From: a virus
Lineage: Duplodnaviria > Caudoviricetes
Virus record (IMG/VR): IMGVR_UViG_3300030060_003808
Location: 1-51,382 of that record
Reading direction: 5' to 3' (one strand)
DNA length: 51,382 nucleotides
Shown piece after piece: positions 3,424-42,535 of this stretch (its first letter is position 1; every line of letters begins with the position of its first letter). Under the pieces are notes generated by a model, which did no database searches, was not told the DNA's origin, and saw only the letters and a program-made list of their open reading frames with translations. The translations under genes were made by a program, and so were the position numbers.

Positions 3424-3522
3424 CTAATCATTGCTAAAGATTGCATACAGCAATATACACAGCAAGACCACCGATGCCACCAATATCAGTGTACCTAACC
3501 CTGTCAACAGTGCATCAATCAT
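3424..3522 (-). CDS. Possible 32-aa single-TM peptide
   Basis: MIDALLTGLGTLILVASVVLLCILLYAIFSND; ATG overlaps the end of the primase gene. Confidence 0.3.
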   Translation of the reverse strand: MIDALLTGLGTLILVASVVLLCILLYAIFSND

Positions 3523-5686
3523 TCCAATTACTCCCGGATCCGCTCGATGTTCCATCGTCAACAGCGGTGTAATCGAGATCATATATCTTCTTCCCATTTG
3601 ATCTGCGCGGCTCGATGCCTCTCTCGTGTAACACACGATTCGCTTCTTTGAAGTCTGGCATCCTCGGGGCCTTAATGCCCAAATCGCGCAACAGCTTCGT
3701 CATCTGCACAGGCTTGGTATATGTGCTGCCAAAGTTGATGTTCTCTAGGATCAGATCCTCGACGCTCGATTGTGTTCGATACGCCTCATTGCTGTCTTGT
3801 AACAGCTCCCGCTCGTCCGGTGATAGAAACCAATTCTTCTGGCCTTGCACATACATAGTCTCTTTGACCTGGGCCCAGAGCTGCTGCATGTTGACACCAT
3901 GATTCACATTGATGTCTTTGACCGCGAGTACCCAGAATCTTCGATTCCCCGACGTGTCCGTCAAAAACTCGCGAGCATTGACCGATGCATAGAACGCCGT
4001 GCGGCGCTGATACGTTGTGAAGGCTCGGTCATACGGCAATCTCAGCTCATCCGTCTTCGCCGTGACAAATGCTTTCAGCTGGTCGATGTCCGACTTCTTA
4101 AAGGTCGACTCGATCTCGCCTAACTCCACAATCCAATGACTCACGGCTCGCTTCACAGAGTCCTTGTCAGAAGGGTTAAGCGTCGCACCCTCTAAGAGCC
4201 AGCCATTATTGTAATTGCAAAGGCGCTTGAACCATAAGGTTTTACCGAGTCCTTGAGCGCCCTGGAGGACCAGGATGCCTTCGAGCTCTACGCCATTCTT
4301 TTCACATGCTGCGGCCACACAGCTGATTAACCACTTTTTCAGCAGCATTTCTTTCAGCTGCGCCGACTCTTCTGTGACCAGCGAATCCATAAAGGCTTGC
4401 AGTCGGTCGGTCCCGTCCCAGGGTTCGCTCTCGATCCATTCCCGGACCGGGTTGTATTCTCTGGCCAAGACCTTGAGATAATCTCTGACCTTTGTGTGTG
4501 GGATGCCCATGTTGATGCAACGATCTTCGATCTCAATGAGACTGGCTTCCTCATACATATCGGCAATAAACTCCATGTTCGGTATGTCAATCTCCATCTT
4601 CTTCTTAATCACGTTGTATCGCACATCGACGCCGTGTGTAATCAATACGCCATTGATGTTGTCTTTGGTGTTTAAATATCTGCCGTTTGCATTGCGGTTG
4701 AAATCGTATTCAACAGGAACGTCGATCTTCTGCAAGACCACCTCGCCTTCGACGACTTCAACTTCGTTCTTATGGTCGTTGTAATCGCCTTGGCTTTCCG
4801 GCATCTGGATCTCGGCGTAACCGCCATTCTTTTGGATAAAGGCTGCCGCCTTCTTCGCTTCCTTCTCGCCTGTTTTACTATCATCGTTATCGGCCACGAA
4901 TATGTGTTTGTGCTTCGGAAAATACTGATACATGACCTCTGCGACCTTGATTAAGTTGTAAGCGTCAAATGCGACGACGACAGGCTGTGAGCGGTCAGCA
5001 TATATGGATGCGGCCGTGGCATAGCCTTCGGCATAATTCAAGCTGTCGCTTGTTTTAAAGATCTCACGGCCAAGAAGAAAAAAGCTGCCGCTTTTTTTGG
5101 AACCAGTAAGGAAACGCTTTGAGCCATCGGCTGCGATAAACTGTAGACCAACGATAGAGCCTTGATTGTCTTTAAGCGGGATCACCAGGTTATCGTGTTT
5201 GTCTTTCTTTAAACCATAGGACAAGACTTGCTTCTTCTCCAGGTACGGATGTTTAATCACGTCCTCGCATTGGTCCCAAATCGACTGCGATCGCTTCGCG
5301 GCCTGTGAATATTTCTCAGCGGATTTGACCTCGGCTTGTTTTTGTAAAGCTGCGATCTCGGCTTTCTGAGCTGGCGTCATACGATAGCGCTCACTGTTCT
5401 CTGGTTTCCAAGTCGCTGTGGGTTGGTCGGCACTGACTCTGTAATCGCCTAAACGTCCAAATGGAGAGGACTGATCGAGCCATGCTTGATACCAACCCAC
5501 GAGCTTCCTCTGGTTGCCAATGTTGATGTACGCTCTACCCACTGAGCCATCGGTAACCAGTCCCTTCTTGGGATCGGGTTCATAGCCATTGCTGGCCAGG
5601 AAATCGCTGAATTGTGTTATGTAATCCCCGGTAAATGGGGCGCTGAAATTTTTGGGTTTAGGTCCTTTTATCTTTAATGACATCAA
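3515..5686 (-). CDS. DNA primase-helicase fusion (Toprim + VirE/VapE-like P-loop NTPase)
   Basis: HPYL..K, AEGYATA and ADND...G Toprim motifs, DYND; Walker A LVLQGAQGLGKT, Walker B IVELGE, RLPYDR, FLTDTSGNRRF. Confidence 0.9.
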   Translation of the reverse strand: MMSLKIKGPKPKNFSAPFTGDYITQFSDFLASNGYEPDPKKGLVTDGSVGRAYINIGNQRKLVGWYQAWLDQSSPFGRLGDYRVSADQPTATWKPENSERYRMTPAQKAEIAALQKQAEVKSAEKYSQAAKRSQSIWDQCEDVIKHPYLEKKQVLSYGLKKDKHDNLVIPLKDNQGSIVGLQFIAADGSKRFLTGSKKSGSFFLLGREIFKTSDSLNYAEGYATAASIYADRSQPVVVAFDAYNLIKVAEVMYQYFPKHKHIFVADNDDSKTGEKEAKKAAAFIQKNGGYAEIQMPESQGDYNDHKNEVEVVEGEVVLQKIDVPVEYDFNRNANGRYLNTKDNINGVLITHGVDVRYNVIKKKMEIDIPNMEFIADMYEEASLIEIEDRCINMGIPHTKVRDYLKVLAREYNPVREWIESEPWDGTDRLQAFMDSLVTEESAQLKEMLLKKWLISCVAAACEKNGVELEGILVLQGAQGLGKTLWFKRLCNYNNGWLLEGATLNPSDKDSVKRAVSHWIVELGEIESTFKKSDIDQLKAFVTAKTDELRLPYDRAFTTYQRRTAFYASVNAREFLTDTSGNRRFWVLAVKDINVNHGVNMQQLWAQVKETMYVQGQKNWFLSPDERELLQDSNEAYRTQSSVEDLILENINFGSTYTKPVQMTKLLRDLGIKAPRMPDFKEANRVLHERGIEPRRSNGKKIYDLDYTAVDDGTSSGSGSNWND

Positions 5687-5713
5687 TCATCCTTATTTTC
5701 TTTTACTATTGTT

Positions 5714-5764
5714 TTGACATGCTAGGGGTTATAGGATAATATCCAAGTTTATTAAATTTTGCAA
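5714..5764. promoter_or_regulatory. Overlapping divergent sigma70 promoters for primase (-) and SSB operon (+)
   Basis: Plus: TTGACA(5714)-N17-TAATAT. Minus: TTGCAA-N17-TATTAT. The two -10 boxes overlap at 5736-5742. Confidence 0.6.
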
Positions 5765-5787
5765 ATACATAAGGTAGGAGATTTATT

Positions 5788-6510
5788 ATGAGCTTAACAA
5801 TCAGCGGCGAAAGCGGCGGTGGGGACTTCCCCAAACTGGAACCAGGTATCTATCACGGCACATGCTACAGCATCATAGATCTGGGTGAATCAGACCAAGA
5901 ATACAAAGGCGTGGTCAGCAAGAAAAAGAGAATACATCTCGGATTTGAGATCACTGAGGCAGTCGATCCCTCAACCAATACAGTAATGATGGAAGACGGC
6001 AGACCATTTGGTGCATTTAAAACTTACACTGCATCTACATCTGAGCTTTCGACTTTAAGAAAACACGTTGAGAGCTGGCGCGGTAAAAGCTATACAGATG
6101 AGGAAGTAGAATCATTCGATATTACTCAAATGATTGGCTGCACAGTTAAGATCGAAATTGGTTTAACAAAAAAGAGTGATTTCGGTGAGGGCGGTAATCC
6201 AAAAATCGTAGCACTCAGAGAACCGAGAGATGGCATCAAGAAGGTAGAAACACACAATGACATAGTGCTTTTTGATATCGACGATTACTGTGACGAGTTT
6301 ACTGGCAATTCCAGTCCGAAAAGCAAGGCCATGTGTGATGTCTTTGAATCTTTGGCTGATTGGCATAAGAGTGACATTGAAGCAAGTTATCAATGGATGG
6401 CCGCAAAACAAAAGTTTGAGGACACACCTGTTGAAAAACTTATGGAAGAAATGCCGCCAGAAGAAACGAACAACAAAGACGACTTCGAAGACGACAAAAT
6501 TCCTTTTTAA
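5788..6510 (+). CDS. ssDNA-binding / replication protein
   Basis: OB-fold-like N-terminus (PGIYHGTCYSIIDLG), acidic tail ending DDKIPF; SD AGGAG. Confidence 0.65.
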   Translation: MSLTISGESGGGDFPKLEPGIYHGTCYSIIDLGESDQEYKGVVSKKKRIHLGFEITEAVDPSTNTVMMEDGRPFGAFKTYTASTSELSTLRKHVESWRGKSYTDEEVESFDITQMIGCTVKIEIGLTKKSDFGEGGNPKIVALREPRDGIKKVETHNDIVLFDIDDYCDEFTGNSSPKSKAMCDVFESLADWHKSDIEASYQWMAAKQKFEDTPVEKLMEEMPPEETNNKDDFEDDKIPF

Positions 6511-6600
6511 TCGATCCCGGTGGGTGGTTTTCTCCTAGATGTCTCACAGCACTTGAAAATTCCACCCACCACCCCAAATGGCATTGGGTGGGCACCCTAA
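6511..6600 (+). ncRNA. Candidate structured antisense sRNA / 3'UTR RNA
   Basis: Stem GGTGGGTGG 6519-6527 / CCACCCACC 6562-6570 encloses TTTTCTCCTA-G-ATGTCTCACA, complementary to the leaders of the genes starting at 9300 and 28462. Confidence 0.55.
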
Positions 6601-6656
6601 ATGTTTAAACTTTATTCATGTTTGTATCAGCTCACCCAATGACCAAGGAAATAAAA

Positions 6657-6896
6657 ATGATAGATAAAATCAATCCAGATCATTACAAAAAAGCACCACT
6701 GGAAAGCATCGAATACATCGAGCACCAGCTGGGCCCAAATTTTAAATATTACCTGGTTGGAACGATCTACAAGTACCTTCATCGCTGGGAGTATAAAGAC
6801 GAACCATTAACGGACCTCAAGAAAGCACGTTGGTACCTGGATAAATTAATTCAACAGGTACAAGAAAAAGAACCATGGAAAAGTAAGAAGTTATGA
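6657..6896 (+). CDS. DUF3310-family protein
   Basis: DKINPDHY...IEYI...G.IYKYLHRW.YK...DLKKARWYL signature; SD AAGGA before ATG 6657. Confidence 0.85.
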   Translation: MIDKINPDHYKKAPLESIEYIEHQLGPNFKYYLVGTIYKYLHRWEYKDEPLTDLKKARWYLDKLIQQVQEKEPWKSKKL

Positions 6897-7054
6897 AAAA
6901 TTTATACGAAAAAATAATCGTACCTTTATTACAAATACTTTTTTGGAATAAAGAAGAAGGCGAAAATGCAGAGCAGAATAAAATTAACAAAGAGCTTAGA
7001 AAAGGTGGATATCCTCCATACAACGATTTAGATAGAAGATGGTGGATGAAGTGA
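6893..7054 (+). CDS. Hypothetical 53-aa protein
   Basis: Not in the track. MKNLYEKIIVPLLQILFWNKEE...WWMK; ATGA overlap with the upstream stop and GTGA overlap with the downstream gene indicate translational coupling. Confidence 0.55.
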   Translation: MKNLYEKIIVPLLQILFWNKEEGENAEQNKINKELRKGGYPPYNDLDRRWWMK

Positions 7055-7773
7055 GCAATCAAATAGAATACGAAGTTTACTCTTTACCCGCAGCTCTTAT
7101 GATGCAACACAATATGTCACAAGAGGTAGTGGCAAATCTCAATAATTACCTGGACGTTTTAAGATCCGACAAACACAAAGAATCAGCCTCCAAATTTTTG
7201 GTGGGCCAGATTCACCAGGGCGAACAACTCAGTATGGATTACATGGATAATCTACTGGCACCTTTCGTTAGCATTGTTGAGAGTCTGGGCATGGCTTATC
7301 TAAGACATTTCGTCGAGTACACAAAATCTCCCTTGAAACCGAAGAAAATAAGTATAGATAAGCTGTGGTCAGTCCACAGTTATGAGGGTGATTACAACCC
7401 TATTCACGATCATTTAACAGCGTCGAATATGGGCATTTCATTTACCACCTGGACCAAAGTGCCAGACCAAATATTAAAACCAGACGAAGAAGACAGTCTG
7501 AGATATGAGCTGTACGAAAATTCTGGCGCCATAGACGGCTTTATAAATTTTACCTATGGTTTGAATCAAACCGGGGATCCAGAGAGTCTAAGGCCCTCTC
7601 AGTCGCGCTATGTAAAACCAGAACCCGGTAAGTTATTGATGTTTCCGTCCTGGATGCAGCATTGTGTTTATCCTTTCTTTGGTGAAGGCGAGCGCAGAAC
7701 AGTGGCCGGGAATTTGAATTGTTTTGATTTAACCAGGGAAGAATTAGAGGAGATAGAGAATGAAAGAGTTTAA
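7039..7773 (+). CDS. Putative 2OG-Fe(II) oxygenase (TIGR02466-like); start may be GTG 7051
   Basis: WSVHSYEGDYNPIHDH, PEPGKLLMFPSWMQHCVYPF, ERRTVAGN. Confidence 0.8.
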   Translation: MVDEVSNQIEYEVYSLPAALMMQHNMSQEVVANLNNYLDVLRSDKHKESASKFLVGQIHQGEQLSMDYMDNLLAPFVSIVESLGMAYLRHFVEYTKSPLKPKKISIDKLWSVHSYEGDYNPIHDHLTASNMGISFTTWTKVPDQILKPDEEDSLRYELYENSGAIDGFINFTYGLNQTGDPESLRPSQSRYVKPEPGKLLMFPSWMQHCVYPFFGEGERRTVAGNLNCFDLTREELEEIENERV

Positions 7774-8536
7774 AATAGGAATGTATGACGATATCCCATA
7801 CGAACAGTATGCAGAGATCCCAGCTTTTAGATCTCACGATCTAACCTCGGTCATTAAATGCCCGTTCAGCTGGCAGAATAAAAAAGAAATGGTGCAAACA
7901 CCAGCTCTCTTGGAGGGCCGAGTGCAGCACACAGTTTTCCTGGAGCATCACAAATTCGACGAAGAGTTTGTCATTCAACCAAAAATTGATCGACGAACCA
8001 AAGCGGGCCGCGAGGAATACGAAGACTTCATGGCAAGTGTAGGCAATCGCACTCCAATCACCCAGGATCTATATGACACCTGTATGGAACGTCGTGAAGT
8101 AGTGAAACACTACATACCCAAAGACACTGACAAAGTAGAACACACCCTAGTCTTTGAGTGGCACGGCCACCCTTTCAAATGTCGTATGGACTGGTATGAC
8201 AACGAGTATGTATGGGACCTTAAAACTTGCCGCGACGCTTCGCCTCGTGGCTTTATAAGAGCGATTAATATGTTCAACTATCACATGCAAGCGGCAATAT
8301 ATGTCGATGCCTGTAGGGCTCTGGGATTGACTGCAAAAGGATTCAACTTCCTGGCCCAAGAAAAACAACACCCATATCCTTATGTTGTTTACACCTTATC
8401 CGACGAGGCCCTGGTCTATGCTCAAAAAAGAAATGAGCAAGCCTTGAGTTTATTGCTGAGATGCAAAGATGGTGAAGATTTCAAACCATACAACATCGAA
8501 GGAATCCAGACAGTAGAGCTCGGAGATCTATACTAA
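7760..8536 (+). CDS. RecE/exonuclease VIII-like PD-(D/E)XK nuclease (DUF3799-like)
   Basis: RRTKAGREEY, FKCRMD, WDLKT, YHMQAAIY, FLAQEK..PY. Confidence 0.85.
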   Translation: MKEFKIGMYDDIPYEQYAEIPAFRSHDLTSVIKCPFSWQNKKEMVQTPALLEGRVQHTVFLEHHKFDEEFVIQPKIDRRTKAGREEYEDFMASVGNRTPITQDLYDTCMERREVVKHYIPKDTDKVEHTLVFEWHGHPFKCRMDWYDNEYVWDLKTCRDASPRGFIRAINMFNYHMQAAIYVDACRALGLTAKGFNFLAQEKQHPYPYVVYTLSDEALVYAQKRNEQALSLLLRCKDGEDFKPYNIEGIQTVELGDLY

Positions 8537-8565
8537 AAAAAGGGAGCTCAGTGAGCTCCCTTTCT
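8535..8565. terminator. Rho-independent terminator between convergent genes
   Basis: AAAGGGAGCTCA-G-TGAGCTCCCTTT hairpin with a T7 tail on the minus strand. Confidence 0.85.
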
Positions 8566-8581
8566 CCCCTCTGGCTTCGAG

Positions 8582-8938
8582 TTACACTCTGATGCCAGCC
8601 TCTCTAATATCATGTAAACACTCAGAAAGATCTGACATAAAGCCTTTGAAAAGATCAAACGGATGATTTGATGTCAACCAGGAGTGGAGCTCCTCAGTTT
8701 TATCCATGCCAGATTCATCAAAGTAGAAATCACCCCAATGTCCATCATCGTTCCAACCAAGCAAACAACTCGGCAGAGCTCCTGTGCTTTTGGGATTGTC
8801 AAAAAACTTGATGATTCGCATGTGCCTTATGCCGTTGTCGTCCGAAAAGCAAATGTAATCGTCATGGTTTCCGGATATTGCAAAAGGAATCCTCAACATA
8901 TTTTTGCCATAAAGAGATTTTATATATTCAATCATCAC
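8582..8938 (-). CDS. Hypothetical protein (accessory cassette 1)
   Basis: 118-aa ORF coupled to the upstream gene; SD GAGGAGG. Confidence 0.7.
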   Translation of the reverse strand: MMIEYIKSLYGKNMLRIPFAISGNHDDYICFSDDNGIRHMRIIKFFDNPKSTGALPSCLLGWNDDGHWGDFYFDESGMDKTEELHSWLTSNHPFDLFKGFMSDLSECLHDIREAGIRV

Positions 8939-9300
8939 TCACCCTCCTCTATTTCAAAATTGCAAGAATCATAAGGAGTCATCATCAACCCAACTTCTTC
9001 AAAGTTTTTATAGATAATGGTTTCCCACTCATAAATTGGATAATCCGCATAACATGGATTTAAAAGATCGTAAAGAATACCGCCTTCACAAATGAAACTA
9101 AATTTGTCGTTGTGTTCATACTCTGGAACCCAAGCAACAGCCTCATCATCCCACCCTCTCTTTATCTCAAAAGCATCAGCATCATTCTTTTTAACTCTAA
9201 TGTAGCCATCCTTTTCATAGATAGTGTAGTCACCAAAATCGTAAAAATCTTTCAAAGTTTTGAGCAACACTTTCTTGATTTTTGGTCTAAGGTCTTTCAT
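8935..9300 (-). CDS. Hypothetical acidic protein (accessory cassette 1)
   Basis: 121-aa ORF with SD GGGAG and its own promoter. Confidence 0.75.
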   Translation of the reverse strand: MKDLRPKIKKVLLKTLKDFYDFGDYTIYEKDGYIRVKKNDADAFEIKRGWDDEAVAWVPEYEHNDKFSFICEGGILYDLLNPCYADYPIYEWETIIYKNFEEVGLMMTPYDSCNFEIEEGE

Positions 9301-9328
9301 ATTTTTCTCCCGTTTTGTTGTTATTTAT

Positions 9329-9375
9329 ATGTCTCACATAACTAATGTATCGTAAGTTGCAACTATATGCAACTA
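9329..9375 (-). promoter_or_regulatory. Cassette promoter with tandem TAGTTGCA repeats
   Basis: TTGCAT-N17-TACATT; TGCAACTA on the plus strand at 9358 and 9368; leader begins TGTGAGACAT. Confidence 0.75.
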
Positions 9376-9401
9376 TTTATTTACAATAATAACAACTTTT
9401 T

Positions 9402-10115
9402 TTAGGACAGATTTTCGTACAAATTGACCAGTCTTTGATGGTCGTGCAGCCAAAAAACCAACAAGTATCTATCACCCGTTCCGACGGGCAATCCTTTGTG
9501 GAGGTTGGTGAAACTTGGAAAGAAAAGCGCGTGGCCCGTTGGCAACGGACTGATCTCACCATAGTTGTGAAATGCGGTTCCACCGCCTTCATACTTACCA
9601 GTATTGAGCGGCACAACCACTGAGATATCCGCGCTCTCGTCGTGGTGCCAGGCACCTTGGCGTTTATCTTTCAGATTGTAATTGGCGATTTGGATGGTTG
9701 ATGGATCTTTGCAATCTCTTTGCCAGACCGCATTGAATATAGGATTCAAAACAGTTTGGACCACAAACCACATACTCCGATAGAGCTCCGGGACCTGTTC
9801 TCGCAGAATAATCTCTGGGATTTGGCGCAGCTCATCTTCTTCATCGTTGGCTGCAAACGAGACTTCTTTCTTCATCATCTCGATTTCTTTCAGCAGCAAC
9901 TTACAAAACTTTCTGCGGAACAACGGAACCCGGTAGATCTCCGGGTGTATTTTCTTTATGACTTTATGCACCGGAGTCTTTCCCATTGACTCTAAACCCT
10001 GGGCACCTTTAAATTTTGCAATCTGTGGCAAAGTGTCCTGGACAGCATTGTATGTCGTGTGATTAACCATCCAATGAGACTGCATACTGAGCAAATAATT
10101 TTTTACCTGGTACAT
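9402..10115 (-). CDS. 2OG-Fe(II) oxygenase, OGFOD2/PLOD (lysyl hydroxylase)-like
   Basis: IYRVPLFRRKFCKLLLKEIE, WHHDESADISVVVPLN..YEGGGT.F, LHKGLPVGTGDRY. Start placed at ATG 10115, behind an extended -10 TGTTATACT. Confidence 0.8.
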   Translation of the reverse strand: MYQVKNYLLSMQSHWMVNHTTYNAVQDTLPQIAKFKGAQGLESMGKTPVHKVIKKIHPEIYRVPLFRRKFCKLLLKEIEMMKKEVSFAANDEEDELRQIPEIILREQVPELYRSMWFVVQTVLNPIFNAVWQRDCKDPSTIQIANYNLKDKRQGAWHHDESADISVVVPLNTGKYEGGGTAFHNYGEISPLPTGHALFFPSFTNLHKGLPVGTGDRYLLVFWLHDHQRLVNLYENLS

Positions 10116-10188
10116 GGCCCAATAGTATAACAAATAAAAAAGAATAATCATTTGTATCTTTGTATTAAAAGTTATAGAATCTCACTAC

Positions 10189-14757: not shown

Positions 14758-16727
14758 TAAGTTGTCCCGCTGCCATATAGATTACCCAATGCTCCGAAAG
14801 TTGACAGACCTGTGCCGATACCAATTTGTGTTGCACTAGGTGGCGGTGCAAAGTCCGTGATAGTTTGGAATTGTCCGGCTGGTGCCATGCTGACAAACGG
14901 CTGCAATGCTTGATATTGAAGCAACGGAGTCATCTGTCTTTGTTGTAAGTTTCTGCGCTGTGCATCCAACATTCTTTGGGCCTGTCCTTGTTGTTGCCCA
15001 CCCATGCCATATAGAGCAGCTATGTCGGATGCCGAGGCGCCAGCTGCTTGCGCTCCAAGACCTTGTAAGCTAGAACCAAGGCCGAATTGGCCGCTGTATC
15101 TTTGTTGTCCGATTTGTTGCTCGGTTCCACCGAGTCCACTGAGAGCTCCAGCCAATGCTTGCGATCCACCGAATCCTTGCCCGGCTAAACCAGCTAAACC
15201 AGCAGAAGCCGCTCTTTCAGCTGCTCTCTGTCTTGCAAATTCACCCAAACCAGTCCTCTGAGCCTCTGAGAAGCCCCTAGATCGTATTCCGCTGACTGCT
15301 TCTGCTAATCCCCTTCCGAGCGCTTCTTGGCGCTCTGAGGCGCCCAAACGGGCTCTGGAGCCAAAGGCTGACTCTCCGCCTCTTGCGATATCCCCAGCTC
15401 TCGCTGCTATATCGCCTTGTGCTCCCCTTTCCATTATATCGCTGATGGTTTGTTGAACCACGCGATCTTCATACGGATCGTAAAATCTATCGGTCATGCT
15501 CGGATCATATCCGCCGATCGTGCCTCTCAGAATGTCAGCTGACTCACCCAAGCCACGTTGCAATGATCCCACACCGCCTCTTGTGGCCGCTAGTGAACCG
15601 ATTGCAGCTGTTCGGCCTCTTTGTAATCCTTCTTCCAATGCTTGTGTTCCAGCTCCATAAGCCCCAGCTGCTTGTTGCAAGTATGGATCTTGCATCCCAA
15701 GAGACTCTCGTTGCATTTGCATGGCTGCAAGCTGATCTGGGCTGAAATCAGCCACTTTTTCATCAATGACGATGGGTTGACCTTGATCGTCATAAAAAAC
15801 CTTCTCAGAGGCTCTCATTGCCCCAGGAATAAAACCGCCTTTTCCGCCAATACCGAATAATAATTGCTCAGTTAGAGGATCTAATCTTGTTGAAACTTGT
15901 TTTACACCAGCTGCATATGGCCCAGGCGCTTGAGCTACATTACCTGTGGATGGCGCTGTCTCTGTTGTTACTGGAGCAGTGTCCGGCGGCAGTGTTGTTT
16001 CTGCTGGTGGAATTACCTGTGGTGCTGGTGGTGAAATATCGACACCTACATCGGGCGGCATCATCGGTTGCTGTATAGGAATACTTGTATCTACAGGTTG
16101 TCCTGTAGTCAAATCAATTGGGGTAGGCATCACTTGAGCACCCGCCATCCCAGGTGCCAAAGTAGGCATGGGAGGTTGATACATCTGATTTCCGGTTATT
16201 GGATCGGTATAGTATTGGCCACCAGGATCAATACCTTCTGGAAGACCTGGTTGTGGCATAGTTGAGGGTGGTAAAACAGCGGGCATGTTACCACCACCGA
16301 TGTCTGGATTCATGCTCATTAGCATTTCTTGTGTTGGCTGAAAAGATGGAGGCACCAATGGACCAGTAAACATATCTTTCCCTCCAAAGATGGGCACTCC
16401 TCGATCATCTACTGCATCTAATCTAGGCATCTGCTCTATACTTGGTAGAAGCGGAGGTTGAACGTATCGCTTTCTTGGTGGAATCTTTCCAATTAAGTCA
16501 GCTAATCCGTCCTTTCCCATGGGCGGCAATAATTGCGTTAAACCCGTTGTGGTACCAGGATTTGGCCTTCTAATATTTGCCGGGTTCCTATTTCTGCCTC
16601 TTAGTTGACGTGGCGTCATTTGCCTTTCAACTGGCGAAACAATAGGACTAAGTGGACTAATGCTAGGCGGCTTAACTTGCTGCCTTGCTCTCATCATTGC
16701 ATCTCTAATACTATCAAAAATAGCCAT
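14757..16727 (-). CDS. Putative ejection (DNA transfer) protein
   Basis: Pro-rich N-half; FYDPYEDRVVQQT and AFGSRA motifs; Gly/Ala/Gln-rich helical C-half. Confidence 0.55.
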   Translation of the reverse strand: MAIFDSIRDAMMRARQQVKPPSISPLSPIVSPVERQMTPRQLRGRNRNPANIRRPNPGTTTGLTQLLPPMGKDGLADLIGKIPPRKRYVQPPLLPSIEQMPRLDAVDDRGVPIFGGKDMFTGPLVPPSFQPTQEMLMSMNPDIGGGNMPAVLPPSTMPQPGLPEGIDPGGQYYTDPITGNQMYQPPMPTLAPGMAGAQVMPTPIDLTTGQPVDTSIPIQQPMMPPDVGVDISPPAPQVIPPAETTLPPDTAPVTTETAPSTGNVAQAPGPYAAGVKQVSTRLDPLTEQLLFGIGGKGGFIPGAMRASEKVFYDDQGQPIVIDEKVADFSPDQLAAMQMQRESLGMQDPYLQQAAGAYGAGTQALEEGLQRGRTAAIGSLAATRGGVGSLQRGLGESADILRGTIGGYDPSMTDRFYDPYEDRVVQQTISDIMERGAQGDIAARAGDIARGGESAFGSRARLGASERQEALGRGLAEAVSGIRSRGFSEAQRTGLGEFARQRAAERAASAGLAGLAGQGFGGSQALAGALSGLGGTEQQIGQQRYSGQFGLGSSLQGLGAQAAGASASDIAALYGMGGQQQGQAQRMLDAQRRNLQQRQMTPLLQYQALQPFVSMAPAGQFQTITDFAPPPSATQIGIGTGLSTFGALGNLYGSGTT

Positions 16728-27750: not shown

Positions 27751-28271
27751 TAGATCAACCCATTTTTAACCAGGCATTTGCCATAAACATGGTTGGCATA
27801 GTTGTTGAGCTTGTCTTTGATTTCTTTTTGTTCAGCATCGTGTTTTGCCTGTTCCTCTGGAGTTCTTTGAGGGTTAATTTCACACTCAACCTTTACAAGT
27901 TTCTGACAATGCAAAATTGTTTTAGCCTCGCAAATCTTAGCCCTTTGAGCATCGGTCAACTTGGTAACGTCAACATTTTTTTGAAAATGAGCAAGACTTT
28001 CTTTGGTGGCCCACTGAGGATCTAGTCCAATAGTCTTGATATGTCCATCTTCGTTCTCATAAAGAACCTCTATACCGCTATAAGTGCTTTTTTTCACAGC
28101 GCACCATTTGTCAGTCTTGGGATTCAAAGTCTGGTAACAAAGTCTGTCACCTCTTTTGGTTGTCTCAATCCAATACTTTCTCTTGGTTCTCAGTTTATAT
28201 CCCCAAGGATAATCTTCAACCACAACAGCATTGTCAGCTGCGTCCTTATTGTAAATTATATTATTTATCAT
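27750..28271 (-). CDS. Hypothetical protein (accessory cassette 2)
   Basis: VEDYPWGYKLRT...WIET...QTLNPKT..W...KKSTY. Confidence 0.75.
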   Translation of the reverse strand: MINNIIYNKDAADNAVVVEDYPWGYKLRTKRKYWIETTKRGDRLCYQTLNPKTDKWCAVKKSTYSGIEVLYENEDGHIKTIGLDPQWATKESLAHFQKNVDVTKLTDAQRAKICEAKTILHCQKLVKVECEINPQRTPEEQAKHDAEQKEIKDKLNNYANHVYGKCLVKNGLI

Positions 28272-28462
28272 TACGCTACCTCCCTAATTTTTCTAAGTAT
28301 GCCCTCGGCCACTTCCCAATCTTTATCAAGTCTTTCTTCTAAATCGGGGTGATTGTAATCACAAGGTTTCAAGACGGGGCTTCCGTCCCCACAAGCATAG
28401 GCAAGCTCAAGAGCATAGTCTATGAGCTTAACTTCATCTTTTTTCAATTTGACGTTAATCAT
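28271..28462 (-). CDS. Hypothetical protein (first gene of accessory cassette 2)
   Basis: 63 aa, SD TAGGAG. Confidence 0.7.
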   Translation of the reverse strand: MINVKLKKDEVKLIDYALELAYACGDGSPVLKPCDYNHPDLEERLDKDWEVAEGILRKIREVA

Positions 28463-28490
28463 TTTTTTCTCCTATTGGTTTGTTAATAAA

Positions 28491-28554
28491 ATGTCTCACA
28501 AATATATTATGGAATAATATGCAACTAATTGCAACTAATTATATACATTATTTT
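28491..28554 (-). promoter_or_regulatory. Cassette promoter with tandem TAGTTGCA repeats
   Basis: TTGCAA-N17-CATAAT; TGCAACTA at 28520 and 28530; leader begins TGTGAGACAT. Confidence 0.75.
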
Positions 28555-28571: not shown

Positions 28572-28603
28572 AAAAAAGGGCCCCGAAAGGCCCTTTCTTT
28601 TTT
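28572..28603. terminator. Bidirectional rho-independent terminator
   Basis: AAAGGGCC-ccgaaa-GGCCCTTT flanked by A and T runs. Confidence 0.85.
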
Positions 28604-28940: not shown

Positions 28941-28984
28941 GGGATCCCCCTATATTTATTATTAATTAAAAAGAACATATTTGT

Positions 28985-29040
28985 AATGTATCAAAGTTTG
29001 CAACTATATGCAACTAATTATATACATTATTTTGCAACTA
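28985..29040 (-). promoter_or_regulatory. Cassette promoter with TAGTTGCA repeats
   Basis: TTGCAT-N17-TACATT; TGCAACTA at 28999, 29009, 29033. Confidence 0.75.
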
Positions 29041-29050
29041 TTTACAGGCC

Positions 29051-29080
29051 AAAAAAAAGGGCCCGTGAGGGCCCTCTTTT
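29051..29080 (-). terminator. Rho-independent terminator after major capsid gene
   Basis: AGGGCCC-gtga-GGGCCCT with a T8 tail on the minus strand. Confidence 0.9.
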
Positions 29081-39012: not shown

Positions 39013-40766
39013 ATTGGCAGCTCATCCTTTTTACCTTTTACTTTAATCGATTCTAGTGATTTTAATACAAGTTTGCAATTCTTTGCAGTGTTCTCACCAA
39101 TCAATATATCTACACCTACGTCTTTTGTTGCGCTTTCTAATCTCGCCGCAGTATTAACTGGATCACCGATTGCTGAATAATCAAATCGAGTGTCAGATCC
39201 CATGTTACCTATGACAGCATTACCGGATTGACAGCCGACGCCCACTTGGACTGGATTGGATAATGTTTTGTTGAGCTCGTCTATTCCTTTTTGTATGTCT
39301 ATGGCCGCTTGAACAGCTTTGGTTTCATGTTCATCAAGATCCAAAGGAGCTCCAAAAATAAACATCCCGGCATCCCCAATAAATTTGTCGGTCATTCCTC
39401 CTAGTTTTTGCACAGCGTTTACTTGGACTGTCAAAGTTTTATTCATTATTTCGGTTACTTCTTCTGGAGATAATTTTTCACTGAGAGCTGTAAAACCACG
39501 AAGATCTGTAAAAAGATAAGTGCAGTATCTTTTTTCTCCGCCCAGCTTCAACAGATCTGGATTTTTTTGGAGCTGCTTAACTTGTCTTGGATCCAAATAA
39601 TGCTCAAATTGTTTTTTGATCTGTTGTCTCAGTTTATATTGTTTTCTGAAATTTAGATAAAAAGCGACAAAACCTACGATAAAACCAGCAATTAATGTCC
39701 AGGTAACATCAATTAAAAGCCCTTTTTGTATGGTTTGGTATCCAAAATAAGCGATTAGAGCGTTTATCAGCCCATAAGATACTAGACCAAGGGTAATGCC
39801 AAATACGTTCAATACGATCCAAATACAGCTTACTGAGAGCAAAAACAGTGCTATTTCTGCCAACAAAGCATAGTCTGGGATAATTGGGCTGTCTTGGATT
39901 AAAATTGACTCAGAAAGCGCAGCTTGTATTTTATGCGGTTCCAATAGGCCAGCTGGTGTCGCAACCTGTGGCATGATGCCTTTGGCCGTTACACCAACAA
40001 AAATAAAACGACCTTTGATGAGCTCAGTCTGTCTAATATCATTTAATGAAAATTGTGGCGTATCAACCCAGCTAATCCATTTTCTTCCCAGGGTGTCTGT
40101 TTTGACAGGAGGCAAGCCTTTAACTCGGACCTCTTGGATTCCAGCATCGGAGGTTTTAATTACATAAGTATCGGCACCAGCAAGGACTTTTAAGACTTCT
40201 GTTCCGTATGCACTCACCCAGCCATCTGGTGTTCTGAGCAACAATGGCATACGCCTTACCAGCTGATCTACTTCTGTGGGTGCTACCGCAATGCCCTGGT
40301 ATGCTGCTTCTCTTAATATCGGTATGTTCTGCACCACGCCTTTTGCTTTGAAACCGCCATGGTCTTGGCCCAAAATCACTGTTCCGGTTGTCATTGGGTA
40401 TTCGCCATTGTCGTTTTCAAATGTAGCCAATACGCTTGGTGCAGCTGCTAGGCTTTTTGCAAACTCTGAGTCACCACCAAATCTGTCATTCTGTGGAAAA
40501 GAGATTACCCAGCCAACTCCCAAGGCGCCTTGATCTAATAATTCATTTTGAATTTTTGCCAAGCGGTTTCGTGGAAACGGATAACCGCCTTCTTTTTCTA
40601 CGTCGTCTTCCGTAATGTTTAGTATCGAGAAATATCCAGAAGGTTTTTGTTCTGGAACCAATGTATCAAATGTTTTGAGTTTTAGTATTTCTAATGGAGT
40701 CCATTGTTGGACCAAAGGAGCTCCTAATAAAATGAGCAAAAAACCTAGCTGTATGGCTCTAATCAC
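39000..40766 (-). CDS. CHASE2-domain class III adenylate cyclase
   Basis: Periplasmic CHASE2 (GGYPFPRNRLA, DRFGGD..FA, DQLVRRMPL), three TM helices, cyclase motifs FTDLRGFT, DKFIGD, DYSAIGDPVNTAARLES (K/D pair indicates ATP specificity). Confidence 0.92.
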   Translation of the reverse strand: MIRAIQLGFLLILLGAPLVQQWTPLEILKLKTFDTLVPEQKPSGYFSILNITEDDVEKEGGYPFPRNRLAKIQNELLDQGALGVGWVISFPQNDRFGGDSEFAKSLAAAPSVLATFENDNGEYPMTTGTVILGQDHGGFKAKGVVQNIPILREAAYQGIAVAPTEVDQLVRRMPLLLRTPDGWVSAYGTEVLKVLAGADTYVIKTSDAGIQEVRVKGLPPVKTDTLGRKWISWVDTPQFSLNDIRQTELIKGRFIFVGVTAKGIMPQVATPAGLLEPHKIQAALSESILIQDSPIIPDYALLAEIALFLLSVSCIWIVLNVFGITLGLVSYGLINALIAYFGYQTIQKGLLIDVTWTLIAGFIVGFVAFYLNFRKQYKLRQQIKKQFEHYLDPRQVKQLQKNPDLLKLGGEKRYCTYLFTDLRGFTALSEKLSPEEVTEIMNKTLTVQVNAVQKLGGMTDKFIGDAGMFIFGAPLDLDEHETKAVQAAIDIQKGIDELNKTLSNPVQVGVGCQSGNAVIGNMGSDTRFDYSAIGDPVNTAARLESATKDVGVDILIGENTAKNCKLVLKSLESIKVKGKKDELPIWTV

Positions 40767-41472: not shown

Positions 41473-42535
41473 TTTCTCCGCCTCCATTGGTGGTTATGTT
41501 TATCTGCTTACCAGCAGAGAGTATCTGTATATTATATCCACCGGATTTATCTAATTCTAAATCAATGGTGTTTTCTACTTGCCTAACCAAAGTTAAGATT
41601 TCGCCTTCGACAAACGTATATACTTGTGCATCTTGGTCAAATCCAGCAATGATTCCTTCTATTCTCACGCCATCAATTTCACTAGCGTCTTGTTCTTTTT
41701 TACCTAAATCTTCAATGATTTCAAGTAGATCTTGTAGAAAATCGACGGCCAGTAAATCAATATCAAGCCTGGTAATCTCATCTTGTAGTTCATCTTCCGA
41801 TAAACCGCTGTCGTCGTCTAGGTCATTTTCCTCCAAAAAATCAGCATCCAAAACATTGCTCGACGAAGTGCTTTGATCTTCAACAGCTCTTTCAACTTCT
41901 TCTGGTGGGCTCACGATCAATAAATTATCAATAAAATTGAGCGATAAGTTTGCCAATACGACAGGTTGTGTCGGTGGTCTTTCTGCAACACTGACCATTG
42001 TGGCTTGGAATGGTTGATTCAAAACCTCGGTCCCGGCTATGGTTTCGACACTGATTGATCCAGAAGTGGTGCCGTCTGGGTTGGGAAGTAGAATTATAAG
42101 CGAGCGGCCGAGCTCATCGACTGTGGTTGTAAAATCAGTGCCTCTGATAAAAATTGAAGCACTCGGTGTCTCTATGGAGATGTTTTCTTTGTCTATTTTT
42201 CCCAGGGCGCCAGTAATAAAGCGGGCTGTTCCGCTGGCCATCTTGAGTGCCATTTTGCTTTTAGAAGGGTTAGGATCAAATATGTATTCATCAATAATGA
42301 TTTTAGAGTGCTCAGTAAGACGAATAACAGAAGAATCGAGAAACGTAATGCCAAGCCTACCATTGCCAGTCCGCACATCATCATAACTAAGAATGTCCAA
42401 AGAAGTTCTTGCGAGAAGTTTATCCGTTTGATCTGCTCGTAAAACTTCTCCATTGCCTCTGAGCTCAGATATCTCGCCCACTTGTGCATAAACATTGAAA
42501 GCCAGTGACGCTAGGATTAGCAGCCACTTGTGCAC
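41444..42535 (-). CDS. FecR-domain periplasmic protein
   Basis: Signal peptide; D.VRTGNG...ITFLD.S.IRLTEHS, G.ARF.TG, TPSASI.IRGTDF; acidic C-terminal half. Confidence 0.85.
   Translation of the reverse strand: MHKWLLILASLAFNVYAQVGEISELRGNGEVLRADQTDKLLARTSLDILSYDDVRTGNGRLGITFLDSSVIRLTEHSKIIIDEYIFDPNPSKSKMALKMASGTARFITGALGKIDKENISIETPSASIFIRGTDFTTTVDELGRSLIILLPNPDGTTSGSISVETIAGTEVLNQPFQATMVSVAERPPTQPVVLANLSLNFIDNLLIVSPPEEVERAVEDQSTSSSNVLDADFLEENDLDDDSGLSEDELQDEITRLDIDLLAVDFLQDLLEIIEDLGKKEQDASEIDGVRIEGIIAGFDQDAQVYTFVEGEILTLVRQVENTIDLELDKSGGYNIQILSAGKQINITTNGGGENEIIINQSD

Follow-up and report, generated by a model that had tools for sequence, protein, structure and literature searches.

Within a short operon of an uncultured marine phage lies a GC-rich hairpin whose loop is complementary, in two adjacent stretches, to the leaders of genes 2.8 kb and 22 kb away. 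Does this hairpin act on those distant messages, does it serve the operon in which it sits, or is the sequence shared for reasons unconnected with RNA? The initial annotation had read the locus as a trans-acting small RNA that clamps the 5′ end and Shine-Dalgarno (SD) sequence of two early cassette mRNAs and shuts them off. As far as sequence comparison can tell, this interpretation appears partly supported, and it is strengthened by comparative data from related phages.

The phage and the operon that carries the hairpin

The window (the whole stretch of DNA that was analyzed) is a 51.4-kb virus record with an estimated completeness of 95%, and its minus strand carries most of the genes. The portal protein shares 49 to 52% identity with those of the Pelagibacter phages HTVC023P and HTVC027P and 41% with those of the Roseobacter phages CRP-901 and CRP-902; the phage thus belongs to an uncultured marine podovirus lineage. 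No close DNA match to positions 5700 to 8600 was found among cultured phages, and a search of the window for tRNA and tmRNA genes found none.

The hairpin is located in a short plus-strand operon (5788-8536) that adjoins the primase-helicase gene (3515-5686) of the replication module. The operon lies 3′ of a promoter-like site, TTGACA-17-TAATAT (5714-5742, plus strand), which agrees with the consensus at 10 of 12 positions and, with its presumed start site, would drive the operon together with the hairpin. Its products comprise a 240–amino acid (aa) PHROG 862 protein, a DUF3310 protein, a 2OG-Fe(II) oxygenase, and a PDDEXK exonuclease. Genes for two distinct 2OG-Fe(II) oxygenases occur within 3 kb of each other on opposite strands (7039-7773 and 9402-10151). 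A terminator-like hairpin (8540-8565), with an A-run on its 5′ side and a T-rich stretch on its 3′ side, separates the operon, which ends at 8536, from a converging pair of minus-strand genes, which ends at 8582; it probably works in both directions.

The first gene of the operon (5788-6510, plus strand) encodes the 240-aa protein, which we describe as a probable SSB-type protein. Its C terminus reads ...DDKIPF (window 6498-6510), and the I-P-F residues are invariant in an alignment of 13 diverse homologues. We take this acidic tail to resemble that of bacterial SSB, which contacts replisome partners. The protein matches PHROG 862, a family of unknown function, and has no Pfam hit; a protein search with it returned only weak matches at 26 to 41% identity. 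An AF2 model (pLDDT 76) has fold matches in BFVD to uncharacterized phage proteins, to DUF669 proteins, and to one entry named “single stranded DNA binding protein.” A sequence-profile search against the PDB gave no match, and when the model was searched with Foldseek, no PDB entry reached E ≤ 0.001; the remaining rows, all weak, presumably include OB-fold proteins. Because neither PDB search gave anything significant, the name is kept at “probable.”

A 107-nucleotide (nt) gap follows this gene and holds the hairpin. The whole conserved element spans 6514-6575 on the plus strand and is the sole match in the window to the covariance model described below (57.7 bits, E = 1.2e-11). Its 5′ arm GGTGGGTGG (6519-6527) pairs with the 3′ arm CCACCCACC (6562-6570) to form a 9–base pair (bp) GC stem. 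The 34-nt loop holds both seeds: an anti-SD half, TTTTCTCCTA (6528-6537), and a half directed against leader 5′ ends, ATGTCTCACA (6539-6548), separated by a single G (6538). Alone, the hairpin is predicted to fold at -22.4 kcal/mol (z = -3.5; 1 of 200 shuffles folds as well), with the loop mostly open.

A second hairpin lies immediately downstream (6583-6639, plus strand), with 11-bp arms at 6583-6593 and 6629-6639. Its 5′ arm includes TGGGTGGG at 6585-6592 and could alternatively pair with the 3′ arm of the first hairpin, as had been proposed. Rechecking gave the same coordinates as the initial annotation for the stem, the loop halves, and this segment. We find, in addition, that the alternative pairing and the four-segment arrangement formed by the two hairpins are confined to the window’s own clade.

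The proposal that the RNA is made from the replication operon agrees with the setting, in which the element lies in sense orientation downstream of the promoter-like site at 5714-5742. Of the three sequence datasets listed as sharing DNA with 5600-9450 (word shares of 0.21 to 0.25), none is listed as RNA. The proposal of a discrete small RNA fared less well: Consensus scans of 6400-6620, which are simple and can miss sites, revealed no promoter-like or terminator-like site belonging to the hairpin itself. It may therefore act within the operon mRNA or after processing, and we do not claim a discrete small RNA. The hairpin is not an intrinsic terminator, given its 34-nt loop and a stem followed by ACCCC with no T-run; the same is true in relatives. 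A small minus-strand open reading frame (ORF) behind the SD-like stretch was also considered and rejected, as neither the window nor its relatives offer a start codon at a usable distance; the sole minus-strand ORF that overlaps the element (6440-6595, 51 aa) starts upstream of the motif.

Complementarity to two distant leaders

The two leaders matched by the loop belong to minus-strand transcription units of similar design. The first control region (9303-9375; leader B) contains direct repeats of TAGTTGCA, a -10–like TACATT, a 5′ motif (9338-9329), an A-rich 16-nt spacer, and an SD half (9312-9303). It precedes two genes of 121 and 118 aa with no family match (8582-9300, minus strand), which end at the terminator-like hairpin near 8540-8565. 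The second control region (28465-28537; leader C) likewise has TAGTTGCA repeats, followed by TTGCAA-17-CATAAT, a 5′ motif (28500-28491), a 16-nt spacer, and an SD half (28474-28465). The first gene behind it (28271-28462, minus strand) encodes 63 aa with no family match. In one relative (L063), a leader of the same 10-mer class stands before a 64-aa ORF whose N-terminal coding sequence is nearly identical to that of this gene.

Leader C reads TGTGAGACAT (28500-28491), 16 nt, TAGGAGAAAA (28474-28465), and aa-ATG; leader B reads TGTGAGACAT (9338-9329), 16 nt, CGGGAGAAAA (9312-9303), and at-ATG. The two loop halves are the complements of TAGGAGAAAA and TGTGAGACAT, respectively. For leader C, the complementarity and coordinates given by the initial annotation stand, while the spacing had slipped by one base (aaaATG in place of aa-ATG). 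For leader B, recomputation returned the same 10 of 10 pairs at the 5′ end, with eight Watson-Crick pairs and one G:U in the SD half. It is also borne out that in both leaders the 10-mer begins 5 nt past the -10–like hexamer (CATAAT in C and TACATT in B), which would place it at the 5′ end of the transcript if start sites are positioned from the promoter-like hexamers. Both leaders are predicted to be unstructured (z = -0.43 for C and +1.32 for B).

The 10-mer ATGTCTCACA occurs exactly three times on the two strands of the window, the other two copies being those at 9329 and 28491. In 300 first-order Markov simulations of the window, chance copies averaged 0.16, with a maximum of 3. The observation of a hairpin whose loop is complementary to two leaders is confirmed as real and not due to chance.

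Energy alone does not single the leaders out. The initial annotation had expected them to be the top matches of a genome-wide scan. When 10,266 windows of 60 nt were scanned with duplexfold (mean -11.6, sd 3.5), leaders C (-26.9) and B (-25.3) came third and fifth, respectively, among distinct non-self sites, and G:U-rich coding sites at 42444-42485, 39394-39426, and 15371-15404 score about the same.

The TAGTTGCA direct repeats are 10 bp apart, cover the -35 region, and are common to three promoters (9344-9375, 28506-28537, and 28980-29040). The third of these (29040-28980, minus strand) has the same design and no TGTGAGACAT leader, which shows that the motif is separable from the promoter. 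Each of the three sits 3′ of a GC-rich terminator-like hairpin (28575-28596 and 29058-29075 for the two at the distal locus). The term “cassette,” used by the initial annotation for both targets, is too narrow for the unit at 28462, where no terminator was detected past the first genes and minus-strand ORFs continue to virion and tail genes.

A conserved RNA hairpin with a covarying stem

We find that the hairpin is widely conserved. Nine viral contigs encode the SSB-type protein at 75 to 87% identity, and in these the gap is nearly invariant. Among 10 sequences in this identity range, only 2 columns vary in 6500-6559, against 4 to 12 per 30-nt coding bin in 6290-6499. One clade alters the 3′ arm and keeps a G:U pair at the changed position. 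A profile search recovered 562 viral loci encoding SSB-type relatives, of which the best 80 (40 to 87% identity) were fetched; in most of these, a GC-rich hairpin lies directly 3′ of the stop codon on the same strand.

Stems were aligned for 30 distinct sequences from relatives, in which hairpins had been chosen beforehand with a hairpin finder. The consensus stem has 9 bp, and eight of the nine pairs show compensatory double changes. Paired cells make up 98.1% of the alignment compared with 83.4% in shuffles, none of 500 shuffles reaching the observed value, although the percentage is inflated because the hairpins were picked with a hairpin finder. When the partner is slid by one to three columns, paired cells drop to 32 to 54%. 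The 268 stem cells include 22 G:U or U:G pairs and no A:C, which identifies the operon’s sense strand as the folding strand. The element is thus a helix backed by compensatory changes and strand-specific wobble pairs, as expected of a structured RNA, within hairpins that were preselected.

A covariance model built from the same finder-selected alignment was run on 91 sources (937 kb, both strands), with 53 matches at E ≤ 3.6e-6 and another 10 of lower significance. There is one copy per record, always 3′ of the SSB-type gene, and no second site in the window. A search of viral contigs for the two arms of the stem, with the loop left free, recovered no more than the same close relatives and unrelated GC-rich hairpins; a metagenome scan likewise returned close relatives only. 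Against all Rfam families, positions 6400-6720 produced only chance-level rows at E ≤ 10 (miRNA, LhrC, and U4atac), far below gathering scores. Whatever its function, the hairpin is a good new candidate for RNA family databases.

The loop also has a conserved plan. Across clades, a pyrimidine stretch complementary to an SD comes first (TCTCC, CCTCC, or CCTTTTT) and is followed, 0 to 8 nt later, by (N)CTCACA; the exception is the loop of G003, which has no CTCACA. The complement of the loop thus reads as a leader minus its spacer. This arrangement is what a decayed copy of a leader-cassette, left by recombination, could look like. Such a relic, or a chance match, would not be expected to persist: The element is kept down to ~40% protein identity, which leads us to exclude this origin, and it has one copy per genome, a covarying stem, and less variation than the adjacent coding sequence. 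We give the relic explanation next to no chance of being correct.

It is also conceivable that the molecule that folds is single-stranded DNA and that the hairpin works in replication, for instance, as a signal for priming or loading. The hairpin lies within a replication module, with genes for a primase-helicase and the probable SSB-type protein, and DNA hairpins tolerate G:T pairs just as RNA hairpins tolerate G:U. A replication signal gives no reason for a loop that mirrors, and changes with, the SD and 5′ end of other transcripts, and we regard this explanation as highly improbable. A T7-type primase site was specifically considered and rejected. The recognition site of such primases is GTC, and this triplet is present in the window’s loop and absent from the loops of most relatives.

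Apparent tracking of leader 5′ ends by the loop across lineages

We searched each record for TGTGAG with an SD and then a start codon behind it; 15 whole records were fetched, and many records are 25 to 80% complete. The leaders found in relatives lie behind promoters of the same design, again 5 nt past the -10 box. Leader positions 7 to 10 vary by lineage (ACAT, AAAT, TA.., and ATTA), and the loops follow. Both leaders in the window have ACAT at these positions and a loop that is the exact complement; two relatives (L010 and L012) also have ACAT leaders and the same loop, which is invariant in this clade.

In G005, L087, and L063 (53% protein identity), leader and loop match at 10 of 10 positions. 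L053 and L055 (57 to 59%) have an AAAT leader and a loop complementary to AAAC, that is, one change on both sides and one U:G. G001 has the leader TGTGAGTA and the SD GGAGGG, and its loop joins CCCTCC directly to TACTCACA, with a match of 8 of 8. The record of G014 carries two leaders starting TGTGAGAT, one per strand, both matched at 8 of 8, and its loop is complementary to nearly all of the shorter leader. The match extends to 10 of 10 plus 8 more in G009, while G008 has one U:G. By our own reading, the differences between leader and loop are mostly wobble-compatible (L053/L055, G008, G004/L061, and two positions in G011); the exceptions, also by our reading, are one U:U in G010/L114 and one A:C in G015.

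Over 15 pairs, the 5′ end of the leader matches the loop of its own genome at a mean of 9.53 nt. Only 12 of 5000 permutations of the 10 distinct loops reach this value, in a test that ignores relatedness and draws on about three independent changes, at positions 7 and 8. The four classes at these two positions (AC, AA, TA, and AT) are matched by the loops, although some leaders do not match the loop that their genome carries. In the SD half, by contrast, the match is not genome-specific (7.07 nt for own versus 6.34 nt for cross pairs). Of the covariation of seed and leaders that the initial annotation had named as a check, the comparison thus suggests one part, in the half of the loop that tracks leader 5′ ends; the covariation of the stem, on the sense strand, comes in addition to it.

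In a second test, the ribosome-binding regions of 12 further records were ranked by duplex energy. In eight of them (G002, G003, G006, G007, G011, G012, G015, and L061), the best or second-best non-self match is a leader that starts with TGTG or CGTG; in G004, such a leader comes fourth. G:U at leader position 5 occurs in several of these pairings (TGTGGG leaders). The ranking found no target in G013, L058, and L091, which are short or incomplete records.

Not all leaders conform. The leader TGTGAGTAAC of L051 and G004 does not fit the loop of its own genome. This leader class (L051:380 and L138:15681) and a second class, TGTGGGAATT (L135:6555, L139:6583, L061:7197, and L142:16906), recur almost unchanged in distantly related records. 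Judging from these sequences, the leader and its A-rich spacer look like a portable, common control module placed before unrelated first genes.

Could the shared motif be recognized as duplex DNA instead? Under this explanation, TGTGAGACAT would be an operator placed over +1 of the cassette promoters and once more within the operon, with one protein reading all sites. The same 10-mer does occur at three places, it overlaps the presumed start site, a common position for operators, and sites read by one protein would also seem to covary within each genome. A duplex site needs no hairpin, though, and here the site is always in the loop of a covarying stem whose G:U pairs point to one strand only. 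Moreover, the anti-SD stretch is likewise kept and varies with the local SD (GGAGGG in G001, an A-run plus GGA in G014, and GGAGAAAA in the window), and most of the positions at which leader and loop differ are of the wobble type. These features argue against a DNA operator, which we consider improbable.

A stronger rival places the function of the hairpin in cis, within the operon mRNA, as a stabilizer, as a processing site, or as a control of the downstream gene or of the SSB-type gene itself; the leader match would then be secondary and the anti-SD stretch generic. The position of the element between the SSB-type gene and the next gene is invariant, and the lack of genome specificity in the SD half also fits a cis role. 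In many relatives (L052, L061, L063, L068, L072, and others), the next ATG lies within ~10 nt of the 3′ arm without a visible SD; the cassette leaders, by contrast, have strong SDs. The loop also matches the ribosome-binding region of the SSB-type gene (7 nt in the window, 10 to 11 nt in L063 and L087, with 11 nt in L087), and this fit is slightly better within genomes than between them (5.82 versus 5.29 nt; 6 of 5000 permutations, relatedness ignored). In G012, the leader of the SSB-type operon (L153:14140-14194) starts with TGTGT and has the strongest predicted pairing with the hairpin (-22.5 kcal/mol; mean -8.2, sd 3.4), a pairing that hints at self-regulation in that lineage. Against this, the effect at the operon’s own ribosome-binding region is only ~0.5 nt, and a cis role leaves unexplained why the CTCACA half and two to four flanking bases track the first 8 to 10 nt of other transcripts. 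We regard a purely cis-acting element as plausible but, on balance, unlikely.

A model for antisense control of distant leaders

Our preferred reading, toward which the evidence tips us slightly, is that the hairpin is an antisense element within the operon mRNA that would pair with the 5′ end and SD of the cassette leaders. The conserved structured RNA at 6514-6575 would be transcribed, in sense orientation, together with the rest of the SSB-type operon and might or might not be trimmed from its transcript afterward. Its loop would offer two adjacent stretches, one against the SD region and the other against the first ~8 to 10 nt of the leaders at 9338 and 28500, which the TAGTTGCA-repeat promoters produce. 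If both stretches paired, the A-rich 16-nt spacer would be looped out and the leader 5′ end and the ribosome-binding site would both be clamped.

The likeliest outcome would be that translation of the first gene is blocked once the replication operon is on, possibly with a change in mRNA decay. Both pairing in vivo and the sign of its effect are inferred. Covering the SD argues for repression, whereas covering the 5′ end could change decay in either direction.

Should the model hold, it would offer a specific and testable account of how promoter cassettes could be timed or held in check in a phage that has no obvious repressor. Natural variants already provide compensatory pairs with which the pairing of loop and leader can be tested.

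Comparison with known RNA regulators

To our knowledge, the base-pairing RNA regulators described for phage genes stem from a few model phages, most of them being encoded on the strand opposite the target. In the accessible portions of the literature on pelagiphage RNA and on the promoters and transcription of HTVC023P, we found no description of an element of this kind. Among bacteria, trans-acting small RNAs have their own promoter and terminator and use a short imperfect seed that pairs with 5′ leaders and covers the SD. The hairpin resembles them in having a short seed complementary to a 5′ leader and its SD; it differs in lying inside an operon between two genes, with no promoter-like or terminator-like site of its own detected in 6400-6620.

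The sar RNA of P22 and the OOP RNA of lambda are small phage RNAs that repress phage genes by base pairing, sar at a ribosome-binding site, and both are transcribed from the same locus as their target, on the opposite strand, with full complementarity to it (PMC12197685). The pairing proposed here is instead short and in two parts, and its targets are far from the hairpin. An antisense RNA of the sar/OOP type arising at this locus was considered and rejected, as the strand opposite 6514-6575 has no promoter-like site and no ORF start.

The closest functional analogue is c4. There, regulator and target are on one transcript, the regulator is cut from a precursor, and a curated family is present in Rfam. 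Short sequences borne on the loops of the c4 RNA of P1 and P7 pair near the ribosome-binding site of a phage mRNA and block its translation, and c4 specificity differs between related phages by matched changes in regulator and target (PMC12197685). As in c4, the two seeds of the hairpin are exposed in a loop, here complementary to a target SD and 5′ end. The architecture differs: Both seeds share the loop of a single hairpin, one of them directed against what appears to be the extreme 5′ end, and the element lies 3′ of an SSB-type gene. Its targets are on other, minus-strand units (9338 and 28500), with the hairpin itself on the plus-strand operon. Since the hairpin also has no sequence or structure match to any Rfam family, it is not a member of the c4 family.

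By analogy with P1 and P7, which c4 sets apart, the loop and leader classes (ACAT, AAAT, TA.., and ATTA) might represent specificity groups. We view this extension as doubtful. If it were true, the hairpin RNA of a resident infection would silence the cassettes that a superinfecting phage expresses first if the two shared a class, and not if they differed in class, which would amount to an RNA-based code for kin exclusion, or heteroimmunity, in abundant uncultured marine podoviruses.

The element is thus a new RNA family that follows a known principle in an unusual arrangement. It would be a family known from comparison alone, across a wide range of uncultured marine phages, and its design would be unusual in that a single loop holds the counterparts of the ribosome-binding site and of the extreme 5′ end of messages transcribed from other parts of the genome.
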